Virus record (IMG/VR): IMGVR_UViG_3300026077_000001
Source of the DNA: a virus
Lineage: Duplodnaviria > Caudoviricetes
Strand: one strand, 5' to 3'
Length of the DNA stretch: 64,000 nt
A program made the translations under genes and the position numbers. Positions 1-64,000 of the stretch are shown here, in pieces. A model generated the notes under the pieces. That model searched no databases and was not told where the DNA came from. It saw only the letters and a program-made list of their open reading frames with translations. Numbering within the stretch: the stretch's first letter is position 1; each line of letters begins with the position of its first letter.

Positions 1-11
1 GTTACGATGAT

Positions 12-1334
12 ATGATCTCTATGAAGAGAGTCTTAGCAAACGACTCTGTTCAAGTTATACGTCGTATCGACTGGATACCCCCAGAACAAACCACTGGTGG
101 TTTGGGTTATGTGTACGATATGTATCGTCACGATTACTCATCCAGTAAGACTGCATCTTCTGGTGCTACCAAGCTATATGATGCTGACTTCTATGTTGTC
201 AACTCATCGTATCAAGCTTACAAATGTATCTACAATGGTACCTCACCCTCTGACCCTAACGGAAAACCTTCAACGGTTGAACCTACTGGAACTAGTACTT
301 CTATTATTACTACCGCCGATGGTTATCGCTGGAAGTATATGTTTACTATCCCCGTCGGACAAGTATTGAAGTTCTTCTCAGGCGATTATATGCCTGTGTT
401 GCAAGATACTGCTGTTCAATCTGACGCTGTTGGCGGTGAGATAGATACAGTGGTTATACAATCATCTGGTTCTGGTTATAACAATGGAACGTACGAAAAT
501 ATCCCGATCAAGGGAGATGGCACGGGCGGTAGGATTAGTGTCGTGGTGGACGGTGGTCGCATTGTTAGTGCTACTGTAACCTCTGGAGGATCTAATTACT
601 CCTTTGGTAAAGTTATCATTGATGAAATCAATGGTATTGGTGCAGGTACTGGTAGTGGTGGTGCTATTGACGTTATCATCCCTCCTAAAGGTGGTCACGG
701 ATCTAACCCTGCAATCGAACTTGGAGGTTTCCGAGTGATGATTAACACGAAGTTTACCTACGATGAAGGATCAGGTGACTTCCCAACTGATAATGATTAC
801 CGTCGTATTGGATTAGTATTAAATCCAAGTAAGTACGGTACCGAAGAATTGGCAGACGCTATTACTTTGTCTGCTGCTAATGCTGTGATTTTCTCTCCAG
901 ATTTCACAGGTTCATTTAATACTGATGAAATTATTACACAAACACGTACTATTGGTGGTCAACAGGTGACTGCTAGAGGACGTGTTGTTTCTTGGAATAC
1001 AACTACTAAAGTTCTGAAATATTTCCAGAACAGAGTGGATGGTATCTTCCCAGAAATTTCTGGTAATAAGACCGTGTTTGATGGAGGTAATACTGTTGTT
1101 GGATCTGGATCTGGTACCTCTGCCGACCCAGACATTAACTTCCCAATCGTACCTGGCGAAGCAACACGTGTTATTAACAACACTGAATATGATCTTGGTA
1201 TGTCATTTACATCTGGTTACGCCAAGCCAGAAGTGAAAAAGGACTCTGGAAAAGTCATCTACATAGACAATAGGAGAGCAATCTCCCGTGCTGGCGACCA
1301 AATTGAGGACATTAAGATCGTAGTAGAGTTCTAA
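12..1334 (+). CDS. gp8: Baseplate wedge subunit gp8 (5' end lies upstream of the window)
   Basis: RRIDW...YDMYRHDYS, FYVVNSSYQAYKCIYNG, DGYRWKYMFTIP and the C-terminal SGKVIYIDNRRAISRAGDQIEDIKIVVEF are typical T4-like gp8 motifs. The frame is open to the window start. Confidence 0.9.
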   Translation: MISMKRVLANDSVQVIRRIDWIPPEQTTGGLGYVYDMYRHDYSSSKTASSGATKLYDADFYVVNSSYQAYKCIYNGTSPSDPNGKPSTVEPTGTSTSIITTADGYRWKYMFTIPVGQVLKFFSGDYMPVLQDTAVQSDAVGGEIDTVVIQSSGSGYNNGTYENIPIKGDGTGGRISVVVDGGRIVSATVTSGGSNYSFGKVIIDEINGIGAGTGSGGAIDVIIPPKGGHGSNPAIELGGFRVMINTKFTYDEGSGDFPTDNDYRRIGLVLNPSKYGTEELADAITLSAANAVIFSPDFTGSFNTDEIITQTRTIGGQQVTARGRVVSWNTTTKVLKYFQNRVDGIFPEISGNKTVFDGGNTVVGSGSGTSADPDINFPIVPGEATRVINNTEYDLGMSFTSGYAKPEVKKDSGKVIYIDNRRAISRAGDQIEDIKIVVEF

Positions 1335-1338
1335 AACA

Positions 1339-4300
1339 ATGCCACAGAATACCAATCTGAATATATCGCCATATTTCGACGATTTCGATAAGGCGAATAA
1401 CTTTTATAGAGTACTGTTCCGTCCTGGATATCCTATCCAAGCGAGAGAACTTACTACTATGCAATCCCTGATGCAGAATCAGGTTGAATCGTTTGGTTCG
1501 CATATGTTTAAAGATGGCTCTATGGTCATCCCAGGTCAAATAGGTTATGACCTAGACGCTAAAGCAGTTATATTACAGGGTTCATTCTTAGGTGCAGACG
1601 TTGAACAATATAGAGAACAGTTAGATGGAAAGATTATCAGTGGTTTGACTACTGGTGTTAAGGCAAAAATTCTATTCTCCATCCCTGCTACTACTTCTGA
1701 GCGTGGTTATATTACATTATATGTTAAGTATTTGACTTCTGGTGGTACAGATTCTACAGAATCAACCTTTGTTGATAATGAACAGTTGATTTGTGAGTCT
1801 GAAATAACTTATGGTAGTTCTTTGATTGAGATTGGAACTCCATTTTCACAGTTACTTCCTACCAACTCTACTGCTGTAGGTTCTACTGCATCAATTACAC
1901 AAGGTGTATATTTCATTCGTGGTTATTTTGTTGACGTTGTTGATCAAACAATCATACTTGATCAATATGCAAATTCACCATCTTATAGGGTTGGTCTAGA
2001 AATCTTCGAATCTATTGTAACTCCAGAAGATGATCCTGGTCTAAATGACAATGCAACTGGTACTTCTAACTACTCTGCTCCAGGTGGACACAGATTTAGA
2101 ATTAGAACTAGTCTTGTTAAGAAAGTTATTGACGATGATACAGATAAGAACTTCATAGAACTATTAAGAATCAATAATTCTCAGATTGAAACATTTGTAG
2201 AGAGAACTGCATATAATGAGATGGCAAGGGAACTTGCTCGTAGAACATTTGATGAGTCTGGTGACTATACTGTAAGGGATTTTGATATTCGTATAAGAGA
2301 GCATAGAAATGATGGTATAAATGGTGGTGTATATCTACCAGGTCAAACATCTCCTGATGGTATAGCATCATCTGAAGCTCATTTTGTAACTGAAGTTGGT
2401 CCAGGTAAAGCATACGTTAGAGGATATGAGTCTGAAACTCTTGTTCCTACCTATGTTGATCTAGAAAAATCAAGGAGTACTGTTGCATTACAGAACTCTA
2501 TTATTCCATTTGAAATTGGTAACTTCTTCTTAGGTAACAATGTTAAGGGTTCACCTATTATTAATGGTAATAATATTACTGAGAACTATCAGGTTATTGA
2601 GTTTAGGGATATAGCTCCTGCATATAACCTAACTGCATCTGGTAATATCATTGGATATGGTCGTGTTGCAGCATTTGAGTATCATAATGGTACAACAGTT
2701 AATGCTCAAGCTACTATATTTAAGGCGTATGTGTTTGATTTACAACCACTAACTTTGATGAAGTTTAGTAGCAATGTAACTCTTGCACAAGGACACGTTA
2801 TTAGAGGACGTAGTTCAAGAGCAAAAGCATTTGTAGAAGCAGATTATAACGGTGTAGATCTTATTAAGGTGTATCAAGTTTATGGTACTTTCCGTGATGG
2901 TGAAGTTATCGAGAGAGATGGTGTAGAAATTGGTACTCTTACTGATTACTATAAGTATGAGATTACTGATGCTAAAGGTATAACTGGTAAAGATCCTGAT
3001 ACTAATGCCATCATTTTTGCGATGGACTTATTGCTGGATCAGGAGACAGTTATTTCTGGTACTAACTTTAATGTTAATGGTAATCCTGGTGGTACTCTAA
3101 CAGGTACACAATCTAATTTCACGTTAGATATAAGACCAGGTGATGTTCTTACTGTTAATGGTGTTGATGAACTTCAAATTACACCTATTAGTATAGTATC
3201 AACAAACATTGACAACCAAATAACAAGTGCTACTAGTGCTAACTATGGTGGTAATGCTGGTCCTATTTCTAATGCTGACTATGGATTTATAGTTAGACGT
3301 AGACCTCAACTTTATAATTCAGAACTTGCTGACCTTATGATTGAGATGCCTAAAGCATCTATCAAATCAATCGCTGATGAATCAGCAATCGTTGCACGTA
3401 CATTTGATGATATAACTGTTACTGGTGCTAATGACTTTACGATCTCATTACCAGCAGACGAACAGTTCCTTGCATATGATAAGGATCATTATCAATTAGT
3501 GTCACTTGCTCCTACAGCAGGTACAGTTATTGATATGGAAGCATCACATTCATTCAACACTACTGGTACTCCTAGAACTTCTCTAACTGTAACAGGTTTG
3601 ACTGGTGTAACAACTGCTAGATTAATTACTTCAGTATCTAAAAACCAAGCAGAGAAGAAACTGAAGAATGCTACTGAAATGGAAGTGATGAAGGTTGAGC
3701 GTACTGCCAACTCTTCTGACAATATTAAGTATGGTTTAACTTATGGTTCATTATATGGTACACGTATTGAAGACGAAGAGATCTCTCTAGGTTCTACTGA
3801 TGTATATCACATTCACGCAGTATATGAATCTAACGATGATCAAGCTGCTGTTATTCCTCATTTAACTATGCAAGATGCTACCATCTTCAATAATGGTACT
3901 ATCATTGAGGGACAAACATCTAAGGCAAAGGCACGTGTTGTAGAATTTAACTCTGTCTCATATGTCTGTCATTTTGTTTATGAGAACGATAATAGGTTCA
4001 CACTTGGTGAAACTATCAGTGGTTTTGATGCTAACAATAATGTAATAACAGGTCTTGTTAATGATGCTGATAACTCTATAAACAATGGTTCACGTAACAT
4101 TACTGACAATTTCTATCTTGATCCTAATCAGTTAGGTCACTACTATGACATTGGTAAACTAATAAGATATAGTTCTGCTAATGCACCTCTTCGTAAAGTA
4201 AAGATTGTATTCAACAGGTTCACCCACGAAGCAACGGGTGACTACTTTGCTGCACAGTCTTATGTTGGTATAGATTATTCTGCCATTCCAAGTATTAAAT

Positions 4301-7300
4301 TTAATGGTGAAACTAGAGAACTTAGAGATGTTCTTGACTTCAGACCTGCTGTAACTCCAGTTCTATCTGGTTCAGGTACTGTTGGATCACCATACTATGT
4401 TAACTGTGCTAGTTTAGACTTTAAAGATAGAGGATTCTCATCTGGTGGTGTTGCAAATAACGCTACTATTATTGACATTCCTAAGCCAGAGTCTGACTTC
4501 CGTTGTGATTATGACTATTATGTCGGTAGAATTGATAAAGTATTCTTAAGTGATCAACAACAATTTAAGGTAATAAAAGGTATTCCTGGTGAGGGTGATG
4601 ATATTCCTGCAAATATTGATAATGCAATGTTACTTGCAACTCTGTATCACGAACCTTATGGTTATGGTCCAGAAGGAGTACACATTGTAAGAGAGAATAA
4701 CAGACGATTCACTATGCGTGATATCGGTTTGATGGAAAGAAGGATTGATAATTTAGAATATTATACTGCATTGAACTTACTTGAAATGGAAACTGCATCT
4801 CTATCTGTTAAAGATAGTGATGGATTTGATAAGTTTAAGAATGGTTTCCTTGTAGATGACTTTACTTCGTTTGATTCAGCAGCAACAACTCACGAAGACT
4901 TTGCTTGTGCTGTATCTTTCTCAGAAGGTAAGTTACGTGCTTCTCATTATACTACTAACGTAGCACTACAATATACTGAGAGTGGATCTAGTGGAGTTAA
5001 ATATCACGAGGTAGGTACTCTAACTCTTCCATATGAGGAGATTACATTTATTGTTCAACCATATTGTTCACGTGTTGAGAATGTAAACCCATTCAACGTG
5101 TTTGCTTATATTGGTAGATTGGATCTATATCCATCATCTGATGACTGGGTAGATACACGTCGTGCACCTGATAAAGTTGTAAACCTAGAAGGTGACTTTA
5201 CTGCACAGGTTCAACGTTTTGGAGGAGATACAAACACAGGTTTAGTTCCAACTCAATGGAACTCTTGGAGAACTAACTGGACTTCTAGTTCTAGTAGAAC
5301 TGATAGTCAGACTATGAGAAGAGGTCACTGGCCATATATTAGAAGAATTACTACAACTACTACTAACAATACTAGGTCACAGACACGTTCTGGTATTAGA
5401 ACTGTAATTACTCCACGTATTGACCGTCAGTCATTGGGAGATAAGACGATTGAAAGAACAGTAGTTCCATTCATTCGTTCTAGAAACATTGCATTTAAGA
5501 TCCAACGTCTTAAGCCTAATACAAGATTCTATGCTTTCATCGATAACGTAGATGTAAACTTCTACACTACACCAAGATTGATTGAGGTTATTAAGGATCC
5601 AGTTGATGATAATCGTACTAACAATACACCATTTGTTACTGGTGAGCAGGTTATTGGTCAGACATCTGGTTGTAGATTAAAACTTGTAAGTCCTGAAACA
5701 GGATTTGATGATGGACTATCACCTTATGATCAGAGTGAACTACCAACATCTTATGCATCTACCACACCATTACTCAACATTGATACTCAAACAATGTCTG
5801 AGACAGTTGCTGGTGAATATTATGGTAACCCATTAGAGACTGAAATCCTTGTAGGACAAACCTCTGGTGCTCGTGCAGTTGTTAAGACTAAGCGTTTGAT
5901 TGCAAATACTAACGGTGATATGGAAGGTATTATGTGGATACCGAATCCTGCTGTATCTACCAACCCAAGGTTTGCTACAGGTACACGTGTTGTACGTTTA
6001 ACAACATCTGAAAATGACTCTAGGATTCCTGGTCAGGTTGATTCTTCTGCATCAAATACTTACGTTGCATCTGGTGTTATTGAAACTAAGCAACAAACAA
6101 TCCTTGCTGTTAGAAATGCTGATGTTGTAAGAGACACAGTTGTATCTGACAGGATTGTTAATGACAACTCTACATCAACCAGAGACACAGGTTGGTATGA
6201 CCCTCTTGCTCAGTCATTCTTGGTTGAGTCTAAAGGTGGTGCATTCTTAACAAGTGCTGATCTATTCTTTAACACAAAAGATAACAGAATTCCTGTATCG
6301 ATACAGGTTAGGGAGATGGCAAATGGATATCCAACTACTAAGGTTCTTGCTTTCTCTGACGTTACTCTTCTACCTTCACAGATTAATCTATCTGAGAATG
6401 GTACAGTTCTTACTAAGTTCTCATTCCCATCACCAATTTATGTTAGAGAAAACAGAGAATATTGTTTAGTTGTTCTTTCTGACTCTAATGAATATAAACT
6501 CTGGATCTCCAGAATGGGTGAAGATGATGTTACTAACGATAGAACGATCTCTGAACAGCCATATGCAGGTGTTCTATTCAAATCACAGAACGCATCTACT
6601 TGGACTGCTGACCAGTATGAGGATCTTAAGTTCAATCTTTATAAAGCAGAGTTTGCTCAGAATACATCTGGTACTGCTGTCTTTAATAATACAGAATTAG
6701 CAATAGGTAACGGTGGTATTGCTGAACTACGTAGCAACCCAATTAAGACTTTAAAACCTGAAATTAAAATCATTCTTTCCGATCACCAAGCAAACTTTAC
6801 TATCGGTGCTGAACTTCAACAGACTGATACTTCACCTGTTCCTTCTGCTATTATCAGACAGGTTGTACAAGGTGTACAGGGTTCATCTAACGCATACATC
6901 ATTGTTGATGACGTAAATGGAACCTTCAGAGAAGGTGTACAGTCTGGTGCTAACTGGATTTACAGATTAGTATCTTCAAGATCACTTGCTGATCTAACAC
7001 TAACTGGTGTTACAGGTACATTCAATCCTGATGACACATTAACAAACGGTACTGGTGCAACTGCTATGGTTACCGCTTGGAACTCAGGTACTGGTGTTGT
7101 TGGTGTTAAGTCTGTAACAGGAACATTTGCTGTTGGTGATGCTATTACTCAGGATACTGATGGATCTACAACTGGTTCTGGTACTATCGCATCTGGTGGT
7201 GTAACTCTAAGTGGAGATGATATTAACGATTATCCTGCTGCTCCTATCTCATACTTCAACCAAGCAACTGAGATTACAGTTGCACACGCAAACCATTGTA

Positions 7301-30697: not shown

Positions 30698-32056
30698 ATG
30701 TTCAATTCTGAACAGTTGCAGGAAAAGTGGAACCCCGTACTTGATTGTGATGGACTTGATAGTATCAAGGACAATTACAAGAAAGCGGTCACCGCAGTCC
30801 TGCTCGAAAACCAAGAAAAATTTTTAAGAGAAGAAGCTGGAGTTCTTACAGAAGCAGCTCCAACAGTTAGCACAGCATCAACCTCATCCGTTGCAGGTTT
30901 CAGTGCCACCGCTACTGCCACAGGTCCAAGTGCAGGTTTCGATCCTGTTCTCATTAGCTTGATCAGAAGGTCAATGCCTAAGCTTATTGCTTATGACATT
31001 GCTGGTGTTCAGCCAATGACTGGTCCTACTGGACTTATCTTCGCAATGCGTTCACGTTACGGTACTAACCGTACTGCTGGAACTGAAGCATTCTTCAATG
31101 AAGCAGATTCAGAGTTCTCTGCAGAGAACGCAGCATCAGATCTAGGAAGAACAGCACAAGCTGGATCTAACCCAGGTCTACTTAACGACAGTGGTACTTA
31201 CAATACCTCAACAGGTATGACTACTGCCGAGTCAGAAGCATTAGGTGATGCTGCTGGCAACCAGTTCGCTGAGATGAACTTCAGTATTGAGAAAGTTACT
31301 GTGACTGCTAAGTCCAGAGCCCTCAAAGCTGAGTACTCACTAGAACTAGCTCAAGACCTCAAAGCCGTTCACGGTTTAGACGCTGAGTCAGAACTAGCAA
31401 ACATCCTCTCAACAGAGGTTCTTGCTGAGATCAACAGAGAAGTTGTTCGTACTGTATACAAGGTTGCAAGACCTGGTTCTCAGAACAACACAGCAACTGC
31501 TGGTATCTTCGACTTAGACGTTGACTCCAACGGTAGATGGTCAGTTGAAAAGTTCAAAGGTTTACTTTTCAACATTGAAAGAGATATGAACGCCATCGGG
31601 CACGAAACTCGTCGTGGAAAAGGGAACATACTAATATGTTCTGCTGACGTTGCTTCTGCACTATCAATGGCTGGTGTACTAGATTACACACCTGCTCTTT
31701 CTGGAAACAGCAATCTACTTCCTGATGACAACAGCAGCACACTTGCTGGTACTCTTAACGGAAGAATCAAGGTTTATGTTGACCCTTATTCTGCAAACGT
31801 AAGTGACAGACACTTCTACGTTGCTGGATACAAAGGTGGTTCTGCATATGATGCTGGTTTATTCTACTGCCCATACGTTCCTCTACAGATGGTTCGTGCG
31901 GTTGGTCAGGATACATTCCAACCAAAAATTGGCTTTAAGACCAGATATGGTCTAGTTGCTAACCCATTCGCTGAGGGTACTACTCAAGGTGAAGGTGCAC
32001 TTACTGCCAATGCAAACCGCTACTACAGACGTAGTTTGGTTGACAACCTAATGTAA
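30698..32056 (+). CDS. gp23: Major capsid protein gp23
   Basis: LQEKWNPVL, GVQPMTGPTGLIFAMRS, AKSRALKAEYSLELAQDLKAVHGLDAE, FYCPYVPLQM, FQPKIGFKTRYG. Confidence 0.99.
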   Translation: MFNSEQLQEKWNPVLDCDGLDSIKDNYKKAVTAVLLENQEKFLREEAGVLTEAAPTVSTASTSSVAGFSATATATGPSAGFDPVLISLIRRSMPKLIAYDIAGVQPMTGPTGLIFAMRSRYGTNRTAGTEAFFNEADSEFSAENAASDLGRTAQAGSNPGLLNDSGTYNTSTGMTTAESEALGDAAGNQFAEMNFSIEKVTVTAKSRALKAEYSLELAQDLKAVHGLDAESELANILSTEVLAEINREVVRTVYKVARPGSQNNTATAGIFDLDVDSNGRWSVEKFKGLLFNIERDMNAIGHETRRGKGNILICSADVASALSMAGVLDYTPALSGNSNLLPDDNSSTLAGTLNGRIKVYVDPYSANVSDRHFYVAGYKGGSAYDAGLFYCPYVPLQMVRAVGQDTFQPKIGFKTRYGLVANPFAEGTTQGEGALTANANRYYRRSLVDNLM

Positions 32057-33273: not shown

Positions 33274-33682
33274 TGAACTACAAGAGTCTTGGGCAAAAGA
33301 TTGTCTCTTTGATGAACTTGCTTTAGGTGATGAGTCTCTAGTTATACCGAGACTTCATCAAAAATATCACGTGTACTATAATAAGTACAAACTAATTCTT
33401 GAAGAGAAGAAAATAGAACTAGGTATAATCAGGAAACAGAAGTGGTTATATTACAATGGCAAAGGTCCAAACACTAAAGGAGAATATTTTGACCTTAAGG
33501 TTCTTAAGGGAGATCTAAATATCTTCTTGGATAGTGATGAGGATATAGCAAAGCAGACACTAACAATTAAATACTTTGAGACTTGTATAAACTATATTGA
33601 GAACATTCTCAAGATGATAAACAATCGTGGATTCCAAGTGAAGAATGCGATTGATGCAAAGCGGTACGAGTTCCCAGTCTGA
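33260..33682 (+). CDS. uvsY: Recombination mediator UvsY
   Basis: ESLVIPRLHQKY, KWLYYNGK, RGFQVKNAID. Confidence 0.92.
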   Translation: MALLDELQESWAKDCLFDELALGDESLVIPRLHQKYHVYYNKYKLILEEKKIELGIIRKQKWLYYNGKGPNTKGEYFDLKVLKGDLNIFLDSDEDIAKQTLTIKYFETCINYIENILKMINNRGFQVKNAIDAKRYEFPV

Positions 33683-35148
33683 TGACTTCCATTGTTAAAA
33701 AGAATGATGTCTATCTTAGGATAGGTACTGAGCAGCATATTCATCACGAATTGTCTGAATACTTTACCTTCGAAGTTCCTGAAGCAAAGTTCCTACAGCA
33801 ACAGCGTAGGTACAGGAGATGGGATGGTAAGATCCGTCTGTATTCTCCTGGCACTGGTGAATTGTATGTGGGACTATATGGATACCTGGTTGAATGGTTG
33901 GAAAAGATGGGGTACGATTACACCATCGATGATAACGAACAGTTCGGAAAACCAGGAGACACAGATGCAGAAGTTACACCGCAGACAATTGCTCGTTTTG
34001 TTCGATCTCTGGCTATGCCTATCAAGGCAAGAGATTATCAACTCAAAGCAATTTACTCAGCACTTCGTCGATATAGACGGCTTATACTCAGCCCAACTGG
34101 ATCAGGGAAGAGTTTAATAATATATTGTTTGATGAGATGGTACATACAAAGGAACTTAGAAGTCTTAATTATAGTACCAACAACATCATTAGTAGAACAA
34201 TTATATAAAGATTTTCAATCATATGGATTCTATTGTCAAGGGACTGTAGATCAGATCTATGGTGGTAAAGAAAAATATACTAAGTCTCAGGTTATAATTA
34301 GTACGTGGCAGTCAATCTATAAGGAAGACAAGTCATACTTTAAACGTTTCGATGCGGTAATAGGAGATGAAGCACACTTATACAAAGCAAAATCACTTAC
34401 GTCCATTCTTACTAAGTGCCATAACGCTAACTATCGCGTGGGTCTTACTGGTACTCTCGACGGTCTTCAATGCAACCAGTTAGTATTAGAAGGTTTATTT
34501 GGTCCCGTAGAACAAAGTATTAGGACTGCAGACTTACAGAAGTCTTCGTACTTATCAGAATTAAAGATCAACATCCTAGTATGTAAACACGATTACATTG
34601 GATTTGATTCCTATCAGGATGAGATAAATTATATAATAGGAAATAGGAAACGGAATAAAATCATCACTGGATTGGCAAAGGATATCTCTGGAAACACCTT
34701 GATACTATTCAATTTTATCGAGAAGCACGGAGACGTTTTGTGGGAAATGCTAAATAGTAATAACAAATCTAAACATTTGTTTTATATTCACGGTGGTGTA
34801 CCCACTGATGAACGTGAAGAAGTACGACAAATCTGTGAAGCGTCTGACAACGCTATCATCCTTGCTTCGTACGGTACCTTTAGTACGGGTATCAATATCA
34901 AGAACCTACATAATGTTATCTTTGCCTCACCAACTAAATCAAGAGTTCGGAACCTACAATCAATAGGTAGAGCCTTGAGGAAGCACGATTCAAAGGCACG
35001 TGCTACACTTTATGATTTTGCTGATGACATTAGTAATGGTAAGTTTAGAAATTTCACTCTAAACCATTTGACTGAACGGATCCGAATTTATAACGACGAG
35101 AAGTTCACCTACGGCATCACTGAGATTAATTTAGGAGACAAGAAATGA
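33682..35148 (+). CDS. uvsW: SF2 helicase UvsW
   Basis: SPTGSGKS, GDEAH, GLTGT, FSTGINIKNLHN, LQSIGRALR. Confidence 0.97.
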   Translation: MTSIVKKNDVYLRIGTEQHIHHELSEYFTFEVPEAKFLQQQRRYRRWDGKIRLYSPGTGELYVGLYGYLVEWLEKMGYDYTIDDNEQFGKPGDTDAEVTPQTIARFVRSLAMPIKARDYQLKAIYSALRRYRRLILSPTGSGKSLIIYCLMRWYIQRNLEVLIIVPTTSLVEQLYKDFQSYGFYCQGTVDQIYGGKEKYTKSQVIISTWQSIYKEDKSYFKRFDAVIGDEAHLYKAKSLTSILTKCHNANYRVGLTGTLDGLQCNQLVLEGLFGPVEQSIRTADLQKSSYLSELKINILVCKHDYIGFDSYQDEINYIIGNRKRNKIITGLAKDISGNTLILFNFIEKHGDVLWEMLNSNNKSKHLFYIHGGVPTDEREEVRQICEASDNAIILASYGTFSTGINIKNLHNVIFASPTKSRVRNLQSIGRALRKHDSKARATLYDFADDISNGKFRNFTLNHLTERIRIYNDEKFTYGITEINLGDKK

Positions 35149-41085: not shown

Positions 41086-41291
41086 CAACTCCAAACTGGC
41101 AACACAATTCTGGGAAGCCACCCAAACGTAAATTAAAACCACGTGCACTTAAGAGTGCAAGAGACAGACGCAACCAGTTGATAAAGTGTCTACTAAAGAC
41201 CTCCGACCGCCATCGGGGGTCTTATAATATGTGTATACAAACGAAGGAATTAAATGACAGTCAACAGAGAAGTCAAAGGAACCCTTGCTAA
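41082..41291 (+). CDS. Basic hypothetical protein (up to 69 aa)
   Basis: MTTPNWQHNSGKPPKRKLKPRAL. ATGA overlap. The 3' part runs through a promoter/hairpin. Confidence 0.55.
   Translation: MTTPNWQHNSGKPPKRKLKPRALKSARDRRNQLIKCLLKTSDRHRGSYNMCIQTKELNDSQQRSQRNPC
41173..41228 (+). promoter_or_regulatory. Early-type promoter: 24-bp upstream element, hairpin, -10 TATAAT
   Basis: accagttgataaagtgtctactaa (41173-41196) and TATAAT at 41223-41228. A second copy lies at 43452. Confidence 0.7.
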
Positions 41292-43464
41292 ACTACTAGC
41301 AACAGAGGATCTAATCATCGAGCACAGAAATTGTGAGACTGCTCAGTTTGACGTGGAGAGACGTGTACTAACTCTTCCAATCTGGGATCAGGCAACTGAA
41401 GCAGTATATGATATGCTCGTCAGTCACGAAGTAGGACACGCTCTATACACTCCAAGAGAGTGGGAGTATGGTAAAGTTCCTCAGTCATTCTTGAATGTAG
41501 TAGAAGATGCTCGTATCGAGAAGTTAATGAAGCGTAGATACCAAGGTCTTCCTAAGACATTCTTCGCAGGTTATAAGGAGTTAAGTGAGCAAGATTTCTT
41601 TGAATCAAAAGAAAACGTTGATACGTTCTCTTTAATTGATAAGATCAACCTACAGTACAAGATCGGTAACTTCCAGTACATCGCATTCACAGACGAAGAG
41701 CAAGTATTTGTAGATGCAGTAGGACAGTGTGAAACATTCGAGGATGTAGAGAACGTTTCTAAACAGATCTTCGACTTTATGAAGGAAGAGTATGAGAAGA
41801 AGCAGAAGGAAGAAGCAGAAGAGGAAGCAGATTCAGCATTCGAAATGCCTCAGATGGGTGGTACAAATCCAGATCTAGGTGATGATTCACAAGATCCTTT
41901 CTCACAGGAATCACCAATAGATGCAGATACTGATGGTCAATCAGGTGATGATGGTGATGATACTGAAGCAGAGGGTGGTGATGTAACTCAGGATGCAGAG
42001 ATACCTACTACAACTGAAGGTGGTGTAGAAGGTGGTAATCCATTAGAAGCACAGACAGATAAGATCTTTACAGACAAAGTTAAAGAGTATGTCAAGCACG
42101 GTGGATTCGAGACTGAGTATGTTGAGATTGATAAAGTTGATCCTGATAAGTTAATCATCTCTTGGAAGGAAATACTTCAGATGTCTGAAGAGAGATATAA
42201 GGTTGAGATGCCTATCGATGGTGATGACAGTCAACTCTGGAGATACAATGTTGAGAAAGCAGACCTTGAGAAGAGTGAGTCAGACTATAGAGAGTTCTTT
42301 AAGTCATCACAGAAAGAAGTTAACTATCTTGTTAAAGAGTTTGAGTGTCGCAAAGCAGCATCTAGTTATGCTCGTGCTACTACAAGTCGTACAGGTGTTC
42401 TTGATACTGCTAGATTACACACTTACAAGTACAATGAGGATCTCTTTAAGAAGGTAACTAACTTACCTGAAGGAAAGAATCACGCTATGGTCTTCTTACT
42501 AGACTGGTCTGGTTCAATGGCAAATTGCTTATTTGATACAGTAAAGCAAGTTCTTCAACTAACTTGGTTCTGCCAGAAAGTTGGTATCCCTTATAGAGTA
42601 TATGCATTCAGCAATAGCATCTATTCTGCCAACTACTATGATAGAACAGTAGATAAGTTCGAAGAGAAGTTGGGTAAGATCTCTTTCAATCAAGGATTCG
42701 GTCTACTTGAAATGCTTACTTCAGAAGGAAACAAGAAAGAGAGAGATAGATCTGCTTTAGCACTCTGGAGAAATGCTGGTGTTAACAGCACTCAACCAAA
42801 AACTTGGTCTCGTGTATACTCTATGGGATGTCCTGCAATCTTAGGTCTATCAGGTACACCATTGATGGAAGCAATTGCAGCAATGCACTCAGTACTTCCA
42901 CAGTTCATCAAGCAAACTGGTGCAGAGAAAATATCTCTATCAATCCTAACTGACGGTGAAGCAGCACAACCTTCTTACAACTGCAAGAGATCAGCAGTAA
43001 TGGGTGATAACCTATTCCGTAACTCATTCAACGGACGTTGCCAGTTAAGAGATCGTAAGACTGGAAGAGTATATGCTCGTAAGGATAACCCTCTAGAGCA
43101 GACAAATGTATTCATCCAGAACCTTAAGGATTCATTCAGACAAGTACAAATGCTAGGGTTCCGTCTAATCACACCACGTGACACTAGTGGATACTTCAGA
43201 ATGATTCAGTATATGGGATTCATTAATGAGTTCAGCGAGGAAGCGATCAAGAGATTCAGAAAGCAGAAGTTCTATGAAGTAACTGAGTCACCTTATGACA
43301 AGTTATTTGTTATGCCAACAACTGCATTAGTAGATGACAATCCACTAGATGATCTTAAGGAAGATGCAACAAAGGCACAAGTTGGTGCAGCGTTCAAGAA
43401 GATGTTCAAGAACAAAGCATCCAATAAAAAGATGCTCGCATCATTCGCTGAGACAGTTGGATAA
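41254..43464 (+). CDS. Metallopeptidase-like (HExxH) plus vWA/MIDAS protein, CobT-like partner of the AAA ATPase
   Basis: SHEVGH, NVVEDARIE, acidic linker, LLDWSGSM (DxSxS), SGTPL, ILTDGEA. Confidence 0.85.
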   Translation: MTVNREVKGTLAKLLATEDLIIEHRNCETAQFDVERRVLTLPIWDQATEAVYDMLVSHEVGHALYTPREWEYGKVPQSFLNVVEDARIEKLMKRRYQGLPKTFFAGYKELSEQDFFESKENVDTFSLIDKINLQYKIGNFQYIAFTDEEQVFVDAVGQCETFEDVENVSKQIFDFMKEEYEKKQKEEAEEEADSAFEMPQMGGTNPDLGDDSQDPFSQESPIDADTDGQSGDDGDDTEAEGGDVTQDAEIPTTTEGGVEGGNPLEAQTDKIFTDKVKEYVKHGGFETEYVEIDKVDPDKLIISWKEILQMSEERYKVEMPIDGDDSQLWRYNVEKADLEKSESDYREFFKSSQKEVNYLVKEFECRKAASSYARATTSRTGVLDTARLHTYKYNEDLFKKVTNLPEGKNHAMVFLLDWSGSMANCLFDTVKQVLQLTWFCQKVGIPYRVYAFSNSIYSANYYDRTVDKFEEKLGKISFNQGFGLLEMLTSEGNKKERDRSALALWRNAGVNSTQPKTWSRVYSMGCPAILGLSGTPLMEAIAAMHSVLPQFIKQTGAEKISLSILTDGEAAQPSYNCKRSAVMGDNLFRNSFNGRCQLRDRKTGRVYARKDNPLEQTNVFIQNLKDSFRQVQMLGFRLITPRDTSGYFRMIQYMGFINEFSEEAIKRFRKQKFYEVTESPYDKLFVMPTTALVDDNPLDDLKEDATKAQVGAAFKKMFKNKASNKKMLASFAETVG

Positions 43465-48566: not shown

Positions 48567-49078
48567 TTGAGTATACTGACGATCTATTTGAGTTCACTGA
48601 TGTATGGGAACTGTATCAGTACTTCGAAGCATATACTCAATGGGAAAAATTAGGTGATGCCTTTGGTAATAAGGTACCTAGTCTTGGTAGAGTATTTGAT
48701 TTGGAGTATCGTGAGTTTGAACCTATTGCAGAGAAGTGGTTAAAATTAATTGGTAATCCTAAAGTACGTAGATGCTTATACAATGCATTCACATATATGG
48801 ACTGTCCTAAACCACACACGGATTCACATAGTTCACAGGGCATCACGTATATGATCTATTGTAATCCTGACTGGCACGCAGGTATGGGAGGAGAAACAAT
48901 CTTCCTAGAAGATGGAGAGATTGTTAAGAGTATTGTGCCAAAGTTCGGAAGGATGGTAAAATTTACTAGTGAGCTATGGCACGGTGCACGTCCACCTTTA
49001 AGGGATGCTCCTATGAGATACAGTCTTGTATATCAGACTCATCCAGTTGAACCTGAAACTATGAGGGATTTATTTTGA
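48563..49078 (+). CDS. 2OG-Fe(II) oxygenase, prolyl-hydroxylase-like
   Basis: PHTD, ITYMIYCNPDW...GGET, WHGARPP, RYSLVY. Confidence 0.87.
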   Translation: MIEYTDDLFEFTDVWELYQYFEAYTQWEKLGDAFGNKVPSLGRVFDLEYREFEPIAEKWLKLIGNPKVRRCLYNAFTYMDCPKPHTDSHSSQGITYMIYCNPDWHAGMGGETIFLEDGEIVKSIVPKFGRMVKFTSELWHGARPPLRDAPMRYSLVYQTHPVEPETMRDLF

Positions 49079-49947
49079 CACAACTAAAATCATATAAGAC
49101 ACCACTTAGATATCCTGGTGGTAAGTCTAGGGCAGCGAAGTATCTTATTCGTCAGTTCCCACTCAACATCAAACAGTATCGTGAACCATTCTTAGGTGGT
49201 GGATCTGTTGCTTTAGAATTTACAAAACAGAATCCTCACGTACCTGTGTGGGTTAATGACAAGTATTATTATTTGTATAACTTCTGGTTCCAAGTACAGA
49301 AAGGATCTAATTTATTAACTGAGGATCTCTTACGTCTTAAACAGAAACACAGCACACCTGATAAAGCAAGAGATCTATTCAATAGATGTAAGGAAACTAT
49401 CTCCTCAGTTAATGAGAGAGAACAGGCAGCATACTTCTATGTTCTTAACAAGTGTTCCTTCTCAGGACTAGGAGAGAACTCATCATTCTCACCACAAGCA
49501 TCTGATTCAAACTTTTCTAAGCAAGGTATCTATAAGTTACCAACATATTCTAAGATCATTCAGAACTGGAAGATAACAAACTTAGATTACACTGATCTAC
49601 TTAAGGACACTGAGGATGCTTTTGTCTTTATGGATCCACCATATGATATTAAGTCCTTCCTTTATGGAGAGAAGGGTGGTACGATGCATAGGAACTTCAC
49701 ACACGATACCTTTGCATTAGATTGCTCTACGTCTGGTAAGAAGTGGATGATCACATATAATTCTAACGATACTATTAAAGAGTTGTTTAAAGAGTATAAT
49801 ATGAGAGAGTGGGATCTGACTTATACTATGAGATCAACAGGATCTTATAACGTAGATCAGTCCAAACGTAAGGAATTGCTAATAACAAACTATAGTGTTA
49901 AATCCATTTTAGAAGATCTTTTTAATGAGCAACTACAAACTATCTGA
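49075..49947 (+). CDS. dam: DNA adenine methyltransferase, Dam/D12 class (TTG start)
   Basis: PLRYPGGKS, YREPFLGGGSV, WVNDK, FMDPPY. Confidence 0.92.
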   Translation: MTQLKSYKTPLRYPGGKSRAAKYLIRQFPLNIKQYREPFLGGGSVALEFTKQNPHVPVWVNDKYYYLYNFWFQVQKGSNLLTEDLLRLKQKHSTPDKARDLFNRCKETISSVNEREQAAYFYVLNKCSFSGLGENSSFSPQASDSNFSKQGIYKLPTYSKIIQNWKITNLDYTDLLKDTEDAFVFMDPPYDIKSFLYGEKGGTMHRNFTHDTFALDCSTSGKKWMITYNSNDTIKELFKEYNMREWDLTYTMRSTGSYNVDQSKRKELLITNYSVKSILEDLFNEQLQTI

Positions 49948-56984: not shown

Positions 56985-57003
56985 CATATATAATGTACAA
57001 CTG

Positions 57004-57030: not shown

Positions 57031-57043
57031 TTGGAGACCCAAT

Positions 57044-57804: not shown

Positions 57805-60275
57805 GTTCAATCTATACAAATGTGACCCTGTTAGGGGACTCCATCCTGTGCCGAGGGTATGAGGATGGAGAACCTGTATCATATAGAGAGATTATAAAAC
57901 CAACGTTGTTTGTTCCATCACCGAAAGGTAAGTGGAGGACTCTTGATGGTAAACCTATGGCACCTGTCAAACAGGATGGTGCCAAACGTGCCAGAGAATT
58001 TATAGAACAGTATAAAGGTGTAGAAGGATTTGAAGTACACGGATATGAGAGGTTTATATACCAGTGGATTAGTGAGAAGTATCCTCACGATATGCGTGCA
58101 CAGATGGATCTGATGAAGATCTATACTATTGACATCGAGGTTGAATGTGAGAATGGATTCCCTGATGTAGATGCGTGTTCTGAGAGAATGCTCCTTATTA
58201 CTATTAAGGATCTTGCTAGTGGCAAGTTTATGACTTGGGGTACTAGAGATTTTAATAGTCAGAATTATAGATCATTCTCTAATGAACAGGATATGCTTGC
58301 TGACTTCCACAGTTGGTGGGTACAGAATACTCCTGACATCATTACAGGATGGAACTGTAACCTATATGATATACCTTATATCTGTCGTAGGATCGAGAAG
58401 ATCCTAGGTGTTAAGTTTCAGAGGAGTCTATCTCCTTGGAACAAGGTAAATATGAGAGAGGTCTACATCCAAGGACGTAGGAACCTTTCATATGATATTT
58501 TAGGGGTATCAATTCTAGACTATCTTGATCTTTATAGGAAATTCACCTATACTAATCAAGAGTCCTATCGACTAGAGCATATTGCTACAGTTGAATTAGG
58601 TGAAGGTAAGTTAGATCATTCACAGTATGAGAACTTTAAAGCGTTCTATACTAATGACTGGGATAAGTTTGTAGAGTACAACATCAAAGACGTTGACCTC
58701 GTACACAGACTAGAGAAGAAGATGAAACTACTGGAACTAGCAGTGGTTATGTCTTATGATGCTAAAGTTAACTTCCAAGACGTGTATTCACAGGTGCGAG
58801 TCTGGGATACACTTATATACAATTATCTAAAGGAGCGTAAAATCTGTGTCCCGCCGAAGATCGAAGCGAAGAAAGATGACAAGTATGCTGGTGCGTATGT
58901 CAAGGAGCCAAAACCTGGTTTATATAACTGGGTTGCTAGCTTTGACCTCAACAGCCTCTACCCTCATCTTATTATGCAGTATAATATATCTCCAGAAACC
59001 CTCGTCGAGAGAAGACATCCAACCGCAACTGTTGAAGGATTGCTTAATCAACAAGTCGGGATCTCTGGAGATTATTCCGTGTGTGCCAATGGAGCACAAT
59101 ATCGCAGGGACATTCACGGCTTCCTCCCTGAAATGATGCAGAAGATCTACGATGAACGTGTGATCTTCAAGAAAAAAATGTTGGCAGCGAAGCAGAAGTA
59201 TGAGGAAACTGGTGAAACAAAACTTCAAGATGATATTTCTGCATATAATAATATACAGATGGCTCGTAAGATCCAACTGAACTCTGCCTATGGTGCTATT
59301 GGCAACCAGTATTTCAGGTACTATAACCTTGCTAACGCTGAAGCAATTACATTATCAGGTCAGGTCTCTATCAGGTGGATAGAGAACAAGGTTAACTCTT
59401 ATCTAAACAAAATTTTAAAAACTACGGAGACTGATTATGTTATTGCTTCTGATACCGATTCCATTTATCTTAACTTGGGTCCTCTGGTTAAAGCTGTATT
59501 CAAGAACGGAGAGAAGAGCGATAAGGACACTCTTAGGTTCCTTGAAAAGGTGTGTGATGTGGAACTTGAAAAGTATATACAAAATTCTTACGAAGAATTG
59601 GCAACCTATGTAAATGCATATGACCAGAAGATGTTTATGAAGCGAGAGAACATCGCTAACAAAGGCATCTGGACAGCAAAGAAGAGATACATCCTTAATG
59701 TATGGAACAGTGAGGGTGTGCAATATAAAGAACCCAAACTAAAAGTTATGGGTGTTGAGTGTGTTAAGTCCTCAACTCCAGGTTCCTGTCGTGATGCGAT
59801 TAGAGGTGCCCTGAGAGTTATTATGAATGGATCAGAAGCAGATGTACAAGAATACATTGCTAAGTTTAGAGAGAAGTTTGAATCACTTCCTCCTGAAGAT
59901 ATTGCTTTCCCTAGAGGTTGCAATAATCTATCTAAATTTAGTGGTACCTCTGGGATATATGTTAAGGGTACTCCAATCCACGTTCGTGGTGCTCTCCTAT
60001 ATAATTTCCACGTTAAGCATAAGAAACTCACACATAAGTACCCTCTTATCCAAGAAGGAGAGAAGGTCAAATTCCTCTATCTCAGGACTCCGAACCGAAT
60101 AGGGGAGAACGTGGTCTCTTTCTTCCAAACTCTTCCACGTGAATTTGACCTTGACAAATCCATAGATTACGATCTACAATTCAAGAAGAGTTTCCTTGAT
60201 CCTTTACAGGTCATCCTTGATACGATCAACTGGAAGGCAGAGAAAGTAGCATCCCTAGAAGAATTTTTCCTATGA
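57801..60275 (+). CDS. gp43: Family B DNA polymerase gp43 (TTG start)
   Basis: [37 protein letters not shown]. Confidence 0.99.
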
Positions 60276-61285
60276 CAACATCCTTTTTAAAAGACATTAT
60301 TAAATCTATTGACAATGAGTATGCTTCAATCGCTGACGACGGACTTGCTGCTGGCGACGTATCTTCTTTTATTGATACTGGAAGTTACATTTTTAATGCT
60401 CTTGTTAGCGGTTCCATATACGGTGGTATACCTTCCAACAAAATTACTGCGTTGGCTGGTGAGTCCTCTACGGGGAAAACGTTCTTCACGATCAGTGTCA
60501 TTAAACACTTCCTCAAGACACACCCAGAAGCAGGTGTAGCATTCTTTGAATCAGAAGGTGCTATCAGTAAAGATTTACTGTCTGATCGTGGTGTGGATAC
60601 CAAACGTGTCGTTATCATACCTGTAGTAACAGTTCAACAGTTCAGACAACAAGCATTGATGGTAGCAGATAACTTATTGAAGGATAAGAATCATCCTCCT
60701 ATGTTATTTGTACTTGATTCTCTTGGTATGTTATCAACAACAAAGGAGATTGAGGATAGTGAAGCAGGTAAAGAGACTAGAGATATGACTAGAGCACAAG
60801 TTGTTAAGTCAATCTTTAGAGTTCTTACACTTAAACTATCAAAATGTAATATTCCCTTAATAGTTACCAACCATACATATGATGTTGTAGGTGCTTATAT
60901 GCCTACGAAAGAAATGGGTGGAGGTAGTGGACTCAAGTACGCTGCATCTACTATCATCTTCCTCAGCAAATCTAAAGAGAAAGATGGTAAGGAAGTGATT
61001 GGTAACATTATTAAATGTGAAACTAAGAAGAGTAGGTTCACAAAAGAGAGTGCCAAGATTGCTACTAGGTTATTCTATGATGAAAGGGGATTAGATCCCT
61101 ACTATGGACTATTAGAATTAGGAGAAAAATATGGAGTCTTTGAGCGTAAAGGAAATCGCATCGTTGTCGGTGATAGTTCTGTATATCCTTCTGCAATGCT
61201 TAAGGATCCAGAGAAATACTTTACCACCGAAGTAATGCAAGCACTAGATGAGTGTGCCAAGAAGGAGTTCGCATATGGAACTTAG
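60272..61285 (+). CDS. uvsX: RecA-like recombinase UvsX
   Basis: [35 protein letters not shown]. Confidence 0.97.
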
Positions 61286-61847
61286 TAAGTTTGTCAAAAC
61301 TTATGATGATGCCATTCCAGTTGAAGTTTGTAAACACGCTATAAAACTATTCGATCAACAAGAAGATCTTGAAGATTGGGATAGGGAAGGGTGTCCTCAG
61401 TTTACTCAGTTTAATATCACAGAGTATCTTGACAAGAAAGAAGATCAAGAGAACCGTGGTGACTGGGATATAATTCAGTATGCTCTCATTAATTCTGCTC
61501 ACGGATTCGTGAAGCAGTATATGGATGAGAATGATTGTAGGAAGTTCTTCCCTAACAGAAGTTCATTAGAACAGTTTAGGATGAAGAAGTATCGTAAAGG
61601 TACTGATGATAGGTTTGAGAAGCACGTTGATGTTGCTGATCACCAGAGTGCTAAAAGGTTCCTGACTATGTTCTGGTATCTGAATGATGTTGAGGAAGGT
61701 GGTGAAACTAAGTTTGATGGATTGACAATCAGTCCTAAGCAAGGTAGACTTCTTATATTCCCTCCGTTGTGGTGCTTTCCACATTCAGGGGAACCAACTA
61801 TTTCTGATGACAAGTACCTAGTAGGCACCTATTCACATTATGTCTGA
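61275..61847 (+). CDS. 2OG-Fe(II) oxygenase (start revised from 61248)
   Basis: [32 protein letters not shown]. Confidence 0.88.
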
Positions 61848-63231
61848 TTCTATTGAAGGACTAGTTATTAATACTCTGGTCTTTAATAAGGAGTATACTA
61901 GACAAGTCCTACCACATTTAAAGAAAGAATATTTTGAACAGTTTAATAACAAGGTTCTCTTTGAAGAGATATCACAGTATATGGTTAAGTACGACCGACT
62001 CCCTTGTAAGGAAGCACTTACGATTGAGTTAGAGAATCGTTCTGACCTAAATGATTCACAGTATAAGGAGATAAAGGATCAGATATCCTTCCTCAATGAG
62101 GAACCACACGAGTCCCAATGGTTAGTTGATACTACAGAAAAGTGGTGTCGTGATCGTGCTATTTACATTGCTCTATTAGAATCGATTCAGATCGCTGATG
62201 GTCAGGCAGATTCTGATATGAGTAGAGATGCTATACCATCTATCTTAAGTAATGCATTAGGTGTTAGTTTCGATAATTCAGTAGGTCACGATTATTTTGA
62301 ACAGTCAGGAGACAGATTCGCTTTCTACCACAGACGTGAGGACAAAATACCTTTCGATCTGGAATTCTTCAACAAGATTACAAAGGGTGGTCTTCCTAAC
62401 AAGACTCTCAACGTTGCTCTTGCAGGTACTGGTGTGGGTAAGTCTCTCTTTATGTGCCACTGTGCTGCTAGTAACTTATCACTCGGTAAGAACGTACTCT
62501 ATATCACGATGGAGATGGCTGAAGAGAAAATTGCAGAGAGGATAGATGCAAATCTATTGAACGTAGACTGTAGGCAGTTAGAGAAACTACCTAAGATTAT
62601 GTTTGATAATAAGATAGAGAAGTTACAGCAGAAAACACAAGGTAGATTGATTGTTAAGGAGTATCCAACTGCGTCAGCACACGTAGGTCATTTCAAAGCA
62701 TTGCTTCAAGAGTTAGCTATTAAAAAGAGTTTCATTCCTGACATAATTTACATTGATTACCTAAATATTTGTGCCAGTTCCAGATATAAAGGAGCGATAG
62801 TTAACTCATACACATATGTGAAAGCAATCGCTGAAGAACTAAGAGGACTTGCTGTAGAAGCAGACCTCCCAATTATATCTGCAACACAAACTACGAGGGC
62901 AGGCTATGGAAACTCAGACGTTGATCTTACCGATACCAGTGAGTCTTTTGGACTCCCTGCTACTGCTGACTTTATGTTTGCACTTATATCCTCTGAAGAT
63001 TTGGAAGCAGAGAATAAAATTATGGTCAAGCAACTGAAGAACCGATACAATGATCCAACTGCTAACAAGAGATTTGCACTAGGCATTGACAGGAACAAGA
63101 TGAGGTTGTATGATTGTAAGGATCAGTCTGATATTGTTGATGCTAATCAGACTAAAGAACAAGTAGAAGCAGGTAATATACTTGCTATACTTCCTGAAAC
63201 TAAAACATCATTCAAAGACTTTAAAGTATGA
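61840..63231 (+). CDS. gp41: Replicative helicase gp41 (DnaB-like)
   Basis: LAGTGVGKS, ITMEMAEE, IDYLNI, SATQTTR, ESFGLPATAD, KNRY. Confidence 0.98.
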   Translation: MSDSIEGLVINTLVFNKEYTRQVLPHLKKEYFEQFNNKVLFEEISQYMVKYDRLPCKEALTIELENRSDLNDSQYKEIKDQISFLNEEPHESQWLVDTTEKWCRDRAIYIALLESIQIADGQADSDMSRDAIPSILSNALGVSFDNSVGHDYFEQSGDRFAFYHRREDKIPFDLEFFNKITKGGLPNKTLNVALAGTGVGKSLFMCHCAASNLSLGKNVLYITMEMAEEKIAERIDANLLNVDCRQLEKLPKIMFDNKIEKLQQKTQGRLIVKEYPTASAHVGHFKALLQELAIKKSFIPDIIYIDYLNICASSRYKGAIVNSYTYVKAIAEELRGLAVEADLPIISATQTTRAGYGNSDVDLTDTSESFGLPATADFMFALISSEDLEAENKIMVKQLKNRYNDPTANKRFALGIDRNKMRLYDCKDQSDIVDANQTKEQVEAGNILAILPETKTSFKDFKV

Positions 63232-63878
63232 CTGAATCTAAAGATGTAAATGAGGTTCTAAAGGATCTCAATAAGGTTGGACTGCCTGATCACGCTTCTC
63301 TGAAGGATCAGATGGACACGGATATGAAGACCAACATTGAAAAGACCAAGGTACCAACTCCTAAAGATGTTGGTAAGACTGTAAAAGGATTCGCTGAACC
63401 ACCTACTGCTAAAGCAAAGGAAGTTAAAGCACGTCAGCAGAAGAAGCACGACAAGAGAAAGAAAGGTGATAAGTTTGAGGTAGATTTAGATAACTATCTT
63501 AAGTTTGTTGATCTTGTCACCAGTGAAGAGTCTAAGAACTATGACAAATTACTTGAGAGGTATGAAGATCTCAAGACTGCAGGTTGTAACATAGCACGTT
63601 TAGATACTGCAGCATCTGGTTTGGTTGCTGAAGCAGGTGAGTTTATGGAAATCGTCAAGAAGATGAAGTTCCAAGGCAAACCATACAATGAAGCAAACAA
63701 AGAACATCTTATTATTGAGTTGGGTGATGTTATGTGGTACGCTGCTAATGCTTGTATGGCATTAGGAGTACGTATGGAAGAGGTTATCATTCGTAACACA
63801 GTCAAACTAGCAGCGAGATATCCTGATGAAGAATTTAGTGTTGAAAAATCTGAAAACCGTGCTGATGGAGACCTTTAA
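63228..63878 (+). CDS. mazG: MazG-like nucleotide pyrophosphohydrolase with ~80-aa N-terminal extension
   Basis: TAASGLVAEAGEFMEIVKK, IELGDVMWY, KLAARYP. Confidence 0.9.
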   Translation: MTESKDVNEVLKDLNKVGLPDHASLKDQMDTDMKTNIEKTKVPTPKDVGKTVKGFAEPPTAKAKEVKARQQKKHDKRKKGDKFEVDLDNYLKFVDLVTSEESKNYDKLLERYEDLKTAGCNIARLDTAASGLVAEAGEFMEIVKKMKFQGKPYNEANKEHLIIELGDVMWYAANACMALGVRMEEVIIRNTVKLAARYPDEEFSVEKSENRADGDL

Positions 63879-63879
63879 A

Positions 63880-64000
63880 ATGGAACAACTTGATCTTGAT
63901 AGAATTGCAACTGCACTTGAAAGAATTGCAGAGAAGCTAGACCATCTTCATATAGATGCTATAGATCACAATCACGTTGAAGGTGATGTTAACACACACG
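63880..64000 (+). CDS. Hypothetical protein, truncated by the window end
   Basis: MEQLDLDRIATALERIAEKLDHLHIDAIDHNHVEGDVNTH... open to the end of the window. SD ggag upstream. Confidence 0.6.
   Translation, partial: MEQLDLDRIATALERIAEKLDHLHIDAIDHNHVEGDVNTH

Follow-up and report, generated by a model that had tools for sequence, protein, structure and literature searches.

The stretch of 64,000 nucleotides analyzed here, taken from the IMG/VR virus record IMGVR_UViG_3300026077_000001 and referred to below as the window, contains no copy of the palindrome CATG. It belongs to a T4-like cyanomyovirus (Kyanoviridae) and codes for head, tail, and baseplate proteins, the g23 capsid protein, UvsW, gp46/47, UvsX, DNA polymerase, and the clamp with its loader. 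Among named phages, it is closest to P-RSM6 and P-TIM40, which infect Prochlorococcus and whose capsid genes are ∼82% identical to its own in DNA. Based on comparisons with related phage genomes and metagenomic loci, we propose that this genome has probably become immune, by loss of the target site, to an orphan CATG endonuclease of the phage itself, a PvuII-fold nuclease whose partner methylase has been lost from the CATG-free clade to which the window belongs.

CATG in the window and its relatives

In a direct count, no CATG was found on either strand of the window (G+C content, 39.4%), in agreement with a preliminary description, made by eye, which had reported that this word is purged from the entire stretch. 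The same description had roughly estimated that ∼200 sites should be present, and the computed values bear this out: 226 sites are expected from base composition, 295 and 204 from first- and second-order Markov models, respectively, and 296.5 ± 16.8 from dinucleotide-preserving shuffles (n = 100). When synonymous codons were permuted within each gene, a procedure that leaves the protein sequences and the per-gene codon usage unchanged, 106.8 ± 7.8 CATG sites were expected (z = −13.6), and the smallest number obtained in 300 shuffles was 83. The absence of CATG is therefore explained neither by Markov models nor by codon bias, and the word lies far below composition, Markov, and codon-preserving nulls alike, as is expected of an avoided restriction site. 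The 68 open reading frames (ORFs) called in the window cover 91% of it, and the ∼5.4 kb called non-coding also contain no CATG (∼11 expected).

The avoidance is visible in the choice of codons according to the base that follows. According to the preliminary description, His is encoded by CAC before a codon that starts with G and by CAT elsewhere. The first half of this rule has no exceptions in the window (76 CAC and 0 CAT codons); the second half is not exclusive, since 142 CAT and 71 CAC codons are used at the other positions. The NCA-TGG junctions that had been described as avoided are indeed missing, as NCA was used in 0 of 64 cases before TGN codons and makes up 41% of such codons elsewhere. 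In addition, none of the 167 codons that precede an ATG codon ends in C (29% elsewhere), and C never precedes the start ATG of a window gene. Both stretches that had been quoted as examples of the His rule lie in frame at the positions given for them (Table 1).

In syntenic 41-kb stretches of the sister phages, CATG is present at normal numbers (140/175 in P-RSM6 and 162/172 in P-TIM40; here and below, CATG figures of this form are observed/expected counts, and O/E is their ratio). When 80 metagenomic capsid-gene loci were surveyed, CATG was absent from about ten contigs, and in a tree of the capsid proteins, all 11 rows without CATG group together (97/97 support) in a single clade that is nested among CATG-normal clades. 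This mapping onto a phylogeny, which had been proposed as a check in the preliminary description, places a single origin of the CATG purge within the capsid tree. Among the relatives of the window in this clade, no CATG was found in G002 (172 kb, 0/584), in G005 (182 kb, complete, with terminal repeats, 0/620), or in the 29-kb fragment G001 (0/91). The contig of G006 (187 kb) has 12/666 CATG sites, all of them in its last 2.4 kb. This block (185063–187347, locus L148) is without a match among the fetched loci and is either a recent recombinant or a mis-assembly.

At 110 sites where P-RSM6/P-TIM40 have CATG, the window has one-base variants of the word, among them TATG (29), CACG (22), CTTG (8), and AATG (6), and the changes at these sites comprise 64 synonymous and 37 non-synonymous ones. 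The asymmetry between TATG (29) and CATA (2) indicates that the replacements follow the synonymous options of the reading frame and not a strand-symmetric mutational process, which rules out mutational bias as the cause. An assembly or sequencing artifact is likewise ruled out by the recurrence of the purge in many independent metagenome contigs. The history of the word within the clade was followed by comparing the window with G002, G005, and G006 (72–73% identity over ∼49 kb). In these pairs, among words that differ from CATG by a single base, 362–402 substitutions had hit the decisive base, without CATG being involved in any of them; for the control words GTAC, GATC, CTAG, TGCA, and ACGT, 26–48% of such substitutions made or removed the word. 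From the lack of a single CATG-involving event among these 362–402 substitutions, we conclude that CATG was selected against throughout the divergence of the clade. Selection against CATG is strong and ongoing, and the earlier suggestion of strong selection is thus supported by codon shuffles, by the replacements at orthologous sites, and by the pairwise comparisons.

A nuclease and a small methylase of marine phages

A PvuII-fold nuclease was found in every relative within the clade for which the region is available. The protein of G002 has 167 amino acids and a weak Pfam match to PvuII (PF09225), which at 16.2 bits does not reach the gathering threshold of 25 that some other members of the family pass (P0138, 30.6 bits). 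Its AlphaFold2 model, built from a 20-sequence alignment, has a predicted local distance difference test score of 88.9, and R.PvuII is by far its best fold match in both PDB and Swiss-Prot (template modeling (TM) score, 0.66–0.75). The catalytic motif, D56…E66-Y-K68 (D…E-x-K), is invariant. According to this model, the protein is clearly a distant relative of PvuII with the PD-(D/E)XK restriction-endonuclease fold and an intact catalytic motif, and it would be expected to act as a nuclease. A sequence search of PDB gave no matches, and there was no characterized CATG enzyme among the Swiss-Prot or BFVD fold matches.

The distribution of the nuclease follows that of the purge. Sixteen clade-A viral loci with a homologue at least 71% identical all have 0 CATG, with 34–83 expected in each, and no homologue was found in P-RSM6 or P-TIM40. 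For the genome of the window itself, a candidate look-alike was identified by a word-index match 43,614 bases upstream of the window. Among isolates, the nuclease also occurs in P-SSM2, P-SSM5, and P-TIM68, and the complete 236-kb genome G004 has an intact family member and yet retains CATG at 199/811 (O/E 0.25). Marine metagenomes contain 1,366 clusters of the family at 90% identity. Among ∼185,000 cellular genomes, there were only two matches, both on tiny contigs of metagenome-assembled genomes, which shows that the family is essentially virus-restricted; a search for cellular homologues with partner methylases gave nothing beyond these two matches.

Some distant members of the family occur in other settings. 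In L122, L123, and L128, they adjoin hypermodification genes (Tet_JBP, ADDT, aGPT-Pplase3, a P-loop nucleotide kinase, and GATase), and CATG is normal in these contigs; L128 has no AGCT, with 20 expected. In the 557-amino acid protein P0157 (L119, 3476–5149), a zeta-toxin/AAA_33-like kinase domain is fused to a C-terminal PvuII-fold nuclease domain. No methylase fusions were found among the fusion proteins of the family.

In other phages, the nuclease is accompanied by a small N6-adenine methylase of ∼190 amino acids with an invariant VSNPPF motif. NPPF is the catalytic signature of amino-methyltransferases, as in M.EcoRI. The two genes directly abut in P-TIM68 and G004, with the nuclease upstream, and in P-SSM2 the methylase is 6.6 kb away. 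When IMG/VR was scanned with the small methylase, 80 diverse viral loci with a G+C content of 32–45% were kept, and in 68 of them the PvuII-fold gene is immediately upstream of the methylase (nuclease identities, 29–98%). The methylase family comprises 4,679 clusters at 90% identity in marine metagenomes. From gene order across these loci, we conclude that the nuclease and the methylase form a conserved virus-borne operon that is common in marine phages. Cultured phages of Thermus, Flavobacterium, Fusobacterium, and Campylobacter were uninformative in this respect, as no nuclease is annotated beside their small methylase.

The small methylase was not found in P-RSM6, P-TIM40, or G003. Its homologues were also not found in the window, G001, G002, G005, G006, or any of the 16 clade-A loci, in contrast to the five G004-like loci, all of which carry it. 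A cognate methylase is therefore present beside the nuclease in 68 of the 80 loci, in G004, and in P-TIM68, and absent from the clade of the window, which by this comparison is a derived form with the nuclease only and not a complete restriction-modification (R-M) system. A methylase of the PF01555 family was considered as the cognate enzyme because it is adjacent to the nuclease in P-TIM68; it was rejected because it also occurs in P-RSM6, which is without the nuclease, and because the copy of P-SSM2 is only ∼33% identical. No PF01555 homologue was found in the window.

Three states can thus be distinguished. When nuclease and methylase are both present, CATG is depleted but still found (73/152 in P-TIM68 and 74/147 in P-SSM2, O/E ∼0.5 in each, and the O/E of 0.25 given above for G004). 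When neither is present, as in P-RSM6 and P-TIM40, CATG is normal. When only the nuclease is present, as in G002, G005, G006, and the clade-A loci, there is no CATG, the end block of G006 apart. The 68 loci with both genes together have 259/1289 CATG sites (O/E 0.20; median per locus, 0.13). Within G004, the density of CATG is uneven, with 2–5 sites in each 10 kb of the first 50 kb, where the operon is located, and as many as 17 in the same length of other parts.

The recognition site and the cause of the purge

If a nuclease is active and its methylase is missing, the genome must be free of the site; a methylase that is kept, in turn, must have a substrate. Words that fit both requirements were sought among those of 4–6 bases: 79 are absent from 631 kb of DNA from phages with the nuclease only, 31 of these occur in all three genomes that have both genes, and all 31 contain CATG. 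This exclusion test points to CATG as the site.

As an independent indication of the site, one group of contigs has a different nuclease in the same operon. In L245 (1888–3004, identical in L247 and L248), the gene that ends 3 nucleotides before the methylase start encodes a full-length Pfam ICEA protein (PF05315; E = 3.9e−28, 98.9 bits vs. a cut-off of 24), and the methylase beside it is 78.6% identical to that of G004. The nucleases of clade A and G004 have no ICEA match. Two unrelated folds, one PvuII-like PD-(D/E)XK and the other of the IceA/NlaIII type, therefore occupy the same slot upstream of ∼79%-identical methylases, which suggests an exchange of the restriction gene inside a conserved operon. 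Helicobacter pylori IceA1 shares 52% identity with R.NlaIII, and “CATG-specific” is the term applied to its partner gene, hpyIM (PMC2749054); the title of a paper cited in PMC3261200 describes IceA1 as a restriction endonuclease that recognizes CATG. If the methylase family serves a CATG nuclease in L245, this methylase and its PvuII-fold partner elsewhere should be CATG-specific as well. CATG in L245, which served as a positive control, is depleted to the same degree as in the PvuII-type loci (3/27). Taken together, these comparisons suggest that the operon most likely recognizes CATG.

Other candidate sites were rejected. CAGCTG, the site of PvuII, has 4 copies in the window, 2 in G001, and 20 in G004, and there are 96 AGCT sites in the window. 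Nor do the counts in G004 indicate a longer site built around CATG: all ten NCATGN contexts are depleted there (most strongly ACATGT, O/E 0.04), and none is absent.

The present state could have arisen in the following way. An ancestor would have carried the nuclease–methylase operon, and incomplete methylation of replicating phage DNA would have favored genomes with fewer CATG sites, as in the present phages that have both genes. Sites would have been removed by single-base, mostly synonymous changes until, at zero, the methylase became dispensable and was lost; the reverse order, in which loss of the methylase came first and forced the purge, is also possible. The solitary endonuclease would then cut any CATG-bearing DNA in the infected cell except that of the phage itself, and its target may be either host DNA, for nucleotide salvage or host shut-off, or the DNA of co-infecting phages. 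The occurrence of distant relatives beside TET/JBP-type hypermodification clusters, which are another means of self-exemption, fits such an offensive role, as does the viral CATG R-M pair of the chlorovirus PBCV-1. The preliminary description had named two possible drivers of the purge; the comparative evidence favors one of these, a phage-encoded CATG nuclease, and the other, a widespread host defense directed at CATG, found no support here.

Several observations weigh against self-immunity by site loss. The purge is a single event on the capsid tree, so its coincidence with the presence of the nuclease and the absence of the methylase amounts to n = 1. The nuclease gene lies outside the window, and a word-index match is what places it in the same genome. 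PvuII, the nearest relative of solved structure, cuts CAGCTG and not CATG; some loci with both genes have near-normal CATG (L220, 24/31; L244, 20/22); and one contig of the clade, G006, ends in a CATG-rich block. Finally, CCGG, GCGC, AGCT, GTAC, and GATC are also purged in cyanomyoviruses, and no phage nuclease has been identified for them, which means that purges have other causes too.

The last point speaks for the classical explanation, in which a CATG-specific type II system in the hosts of the clade drives the purge and the nuclease of the phage is incidental to it. Palindromes that are missing from phages are, by established opinion, explained by host R-M, and, given the single origin of the purge, the link to the nuclease could reflect shared ancestry. 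We nevertheless consider this explanation unlikely, because CATG numbers are normal in P-RSM6 and P-TIM40, for both of which Prochlorococcus NATL2A was the isolation host, because the depletion goes together with the phage operon in 68 diverse loci (the O/E of 0.20 given above), and because an exact zero is found only in nuclease carriers that are without the methylase. In addition, R-M is reportedly an uncommon feature of marine picocyanobacteria (PMC6708340).

A CATG-free genome could also shield the phage from the nucleases of co-infecting phages, in which case its own nuclease would be an offensive extra or a relic. The abundance of both families in marine metagenomes, their essentially virus-restricted occurrence, and the depletion of CATG in carriers of either nuclease type are what this explanation predicts. 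It is quite unlikely in view of the operon-less phages P-RSM6 and P-TIM40, which are undepleted although NATL2A also yielded the operon carrier P-SSM5, and in view of the exact zero, which is seen only when nuclease presence and methylase absence coincide in the same phage.

Very unlikely is the remaining alternative, that the nuclease recognizes another site, or is inactive or modification-dependent, and that the purge has an unrelated cause such as mutational bias: it agrees with the site of PvuII, with weaker fold matches that include the methyl-directed enzymes NhoI, Eco15I, and DpnI, and with the distant family members beside hypermodification genes in CATG-normal contigs, but CAGCTG and AGCT persist in the phages as counted above, no word without CATG is absent with the nuclease alone and present with both genes, the replacements at orthologous sites follow synonymous availability, and the D…E-x-K motif is invariant.

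Other depleted palindromes, features of the window, and known systems

The depletion of CCGG and GCGC in the window was missed by the preliminary description. Neither word occurs in the window (∼24 and ∼19 expected, respectively), and CGCG (2 vs. 13 expected) and GGCC (8 vs. 19 expected) are scarce. AGCT, which had been called common, is in fact depleted, as 230 sites are expected in place of the 96 found. CCGG and GCGC are also totally absent from the 41-kb stretches of P-RSM6 and P-TIM40. CCGG is missing from almost every cyanomyovirus locus surveyed, with or without the PvuII-fold nuclease (in whole genomes, 0 sites vs. 111–119 expected, and 1 vs. 79 in G004), and GCGC is normal in lineages other than those of the window, P-RSM6, and P-TIM40. 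Other words are depleted in other phages: AGCT is reduced to ∼1 site in L014–L016 and L045 and to 11–16 sites in G002, G005, and G006 (∼340–400 expected), which are thus more depleted than the window; GTAC is scarce in P-TIM40 and in many other phages, and absent or nearly so in L002, L013, and L023–L035; GATC is nearly absent from L031 and L057 and absent or nearly so in L025 and L114; and ACGT is absent from L041 and L067. Different cyanomyovirus sub-lineages are thus without, or nearly without, different 4-bp palindromes.

A wider reading of these patterns, which is possible but which we hold to be doubtful, is that marine cyanomyoviruses employ restriction enzymes as weapons and escape them by ridding their own genomes of the recognized word, rather than by methylation. 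The other purged tetramers (CCGG and, by lineage, AGCT, GTAC, GATC, ACGT, and GCGC) would then reflect further phage-borne nucleases in an arms race between phages, or between phage and host, rather than host defense, and the clade of the window would be the end point of a series that leads from phages with both genes and many sites, through phages with both genes and few sites, to phages with the nuclease only and no sites.

The features of the window referred to in the text are listed in Table 1. Plus-strand ORFs make up 63 of the 68 called. A single DNA methylase was found in the window, a D12-class enzyme whose orthologues occur in CATG-free and CATG-normal phages alike; on the evidence of sequence comparison, it is not the cognate methylase of the nuclease. 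Its TTG start apparently lies 4 bases before the stop of an upstream 2-oxoglutarate–Fe(II) oxygenase gene, and the protein is only ∼49% identical to the enzymes of P-RSM6 and P-TIM40, although the capsid genes are ∼82% identical in DNA.

Table 1. Positions of features in the 64,000-nucleotide window
Feature	Position	Strand	Remarks
CATG-free stretch, coding and non-coding	1..64000	both	0 CATG vs. 204–297 expected (composition) and 107 ± 8 (codon shuffle)
Major capsid gene g23, phylogenetic marker	30698..32056	+	82% DNA identity to the P-RSM6 major head gene
Example of His codon choice, reads CATCACGAA	33742..33750	+	Frame 0 of ORF 33682–35148; CAT before C, CAC before G
Example of His codon choice, reads CACGAAGTAGGACACGCT	41425..41442	+	Frame 0 of ORF 41254–43464; both His codons before G are CAC
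D12-class (Dam-like) N6-adenine DNA methyltransferase	49075..49947	+	TTG start; 290 amino acids, intact; PF02086, E = 1.8e−32
ORF, 470 amino acids	54073..55485	−	No Pfam match
ORF, 170 amino acids	55660..56172	−	No Pfam match

Missing restriction sites in phages are usually read as scars of host defense; here, the evidence points to a virus-borne operon. If the proposal is correct, the clade would be a clear example from nature of a restriction enzyme that stands alone and tells self from non-self by the lack of any site in its own genome, and an exact-zero palindrome together with an orphan nuclease would be a genomic signature by which such weapons could be recognized. The proposal would also bear on host-DNA degradation or the exclusion of rivals by cyanophages in populations of Prochlorococcus and Synechococcus, which are of global importance, and two enzymes are predicted by it: a new CATG-specific one with the fold of PvuII, and an adenine methylase of very small size that acts on CATG. 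A literature search turned up no publication on the avoidance of CATG by cyanophages.

Avoidance of restriction sites by phages is known, for example from the missing GATC of Staphylococcus phage K-like viruses, and has reportedly been surveyed in general by Sharp in 1986 and by Rocha in 2001. The purge described here resembles such cases in that a type II palindrome is far below chance and was removed through context-dependent synonymous codons. It differs from them in that the likely agent is the phage's own nuclease and not a host enzyme, and in that the count is exactly zero over genomes of ∼180 kb that have diverged to ∼72% identity. In phage T4, EndoII and EndoIV degrade host DNA, and the phage protects itself by hydroxymethylcytosine. 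An attack on non-phage DNA from which phage DNA is exempt is what we propose for the cyanophage clade as well, but exemption in T4 is achieved by base modification and in the cyanophages would be achieved by the missing target sequence.

The nuclease is similar to that of the PvuII system in its small, homodimer-type PD-(D/E)XK fold (PDB 1pvi and 1f0o) and in the equal spacing of D…E-x-K. It differs in its subthreshold PF09225 score (16 vs. 25), in its partner, a 190-amino acid NPPF adenine enzyme in place of the N4-cytosine methylase M.PvuII, and in the predicted site, CATG, whereas CAGCTG is present in the phage. With the NlaIII/IceA1-HpyI family (PF05315), the system shares the predicted word and, through L245, where an ICEA nuclease stands exactly where the PvuII-fold gene is found in other loci, the place in the operon. 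The nuclease of the clade has an unrelated fold with no ICEA match, so it would work like that family without being a member of it. The chlorovirus PBCV-1 encodes R.CviAII (A252R) and M.CviAII (A251R), which act on CATG with N6-methyladenine as the modification (PMC7248222), and is thus a precedent for a virus-encoded CATG type II system with a protective adenine methylase. R.CviAII was not matched in the fold search with the cyanophage nuclease, and PBCV-1 keeps both the methylase and its CATG sites, whereas the cyanophage clade is without both. Site avoidance and virus-borne R-M systems are therefore both known, and what is new is a derivative with the nuclease only that would be immune through total absence of its site.

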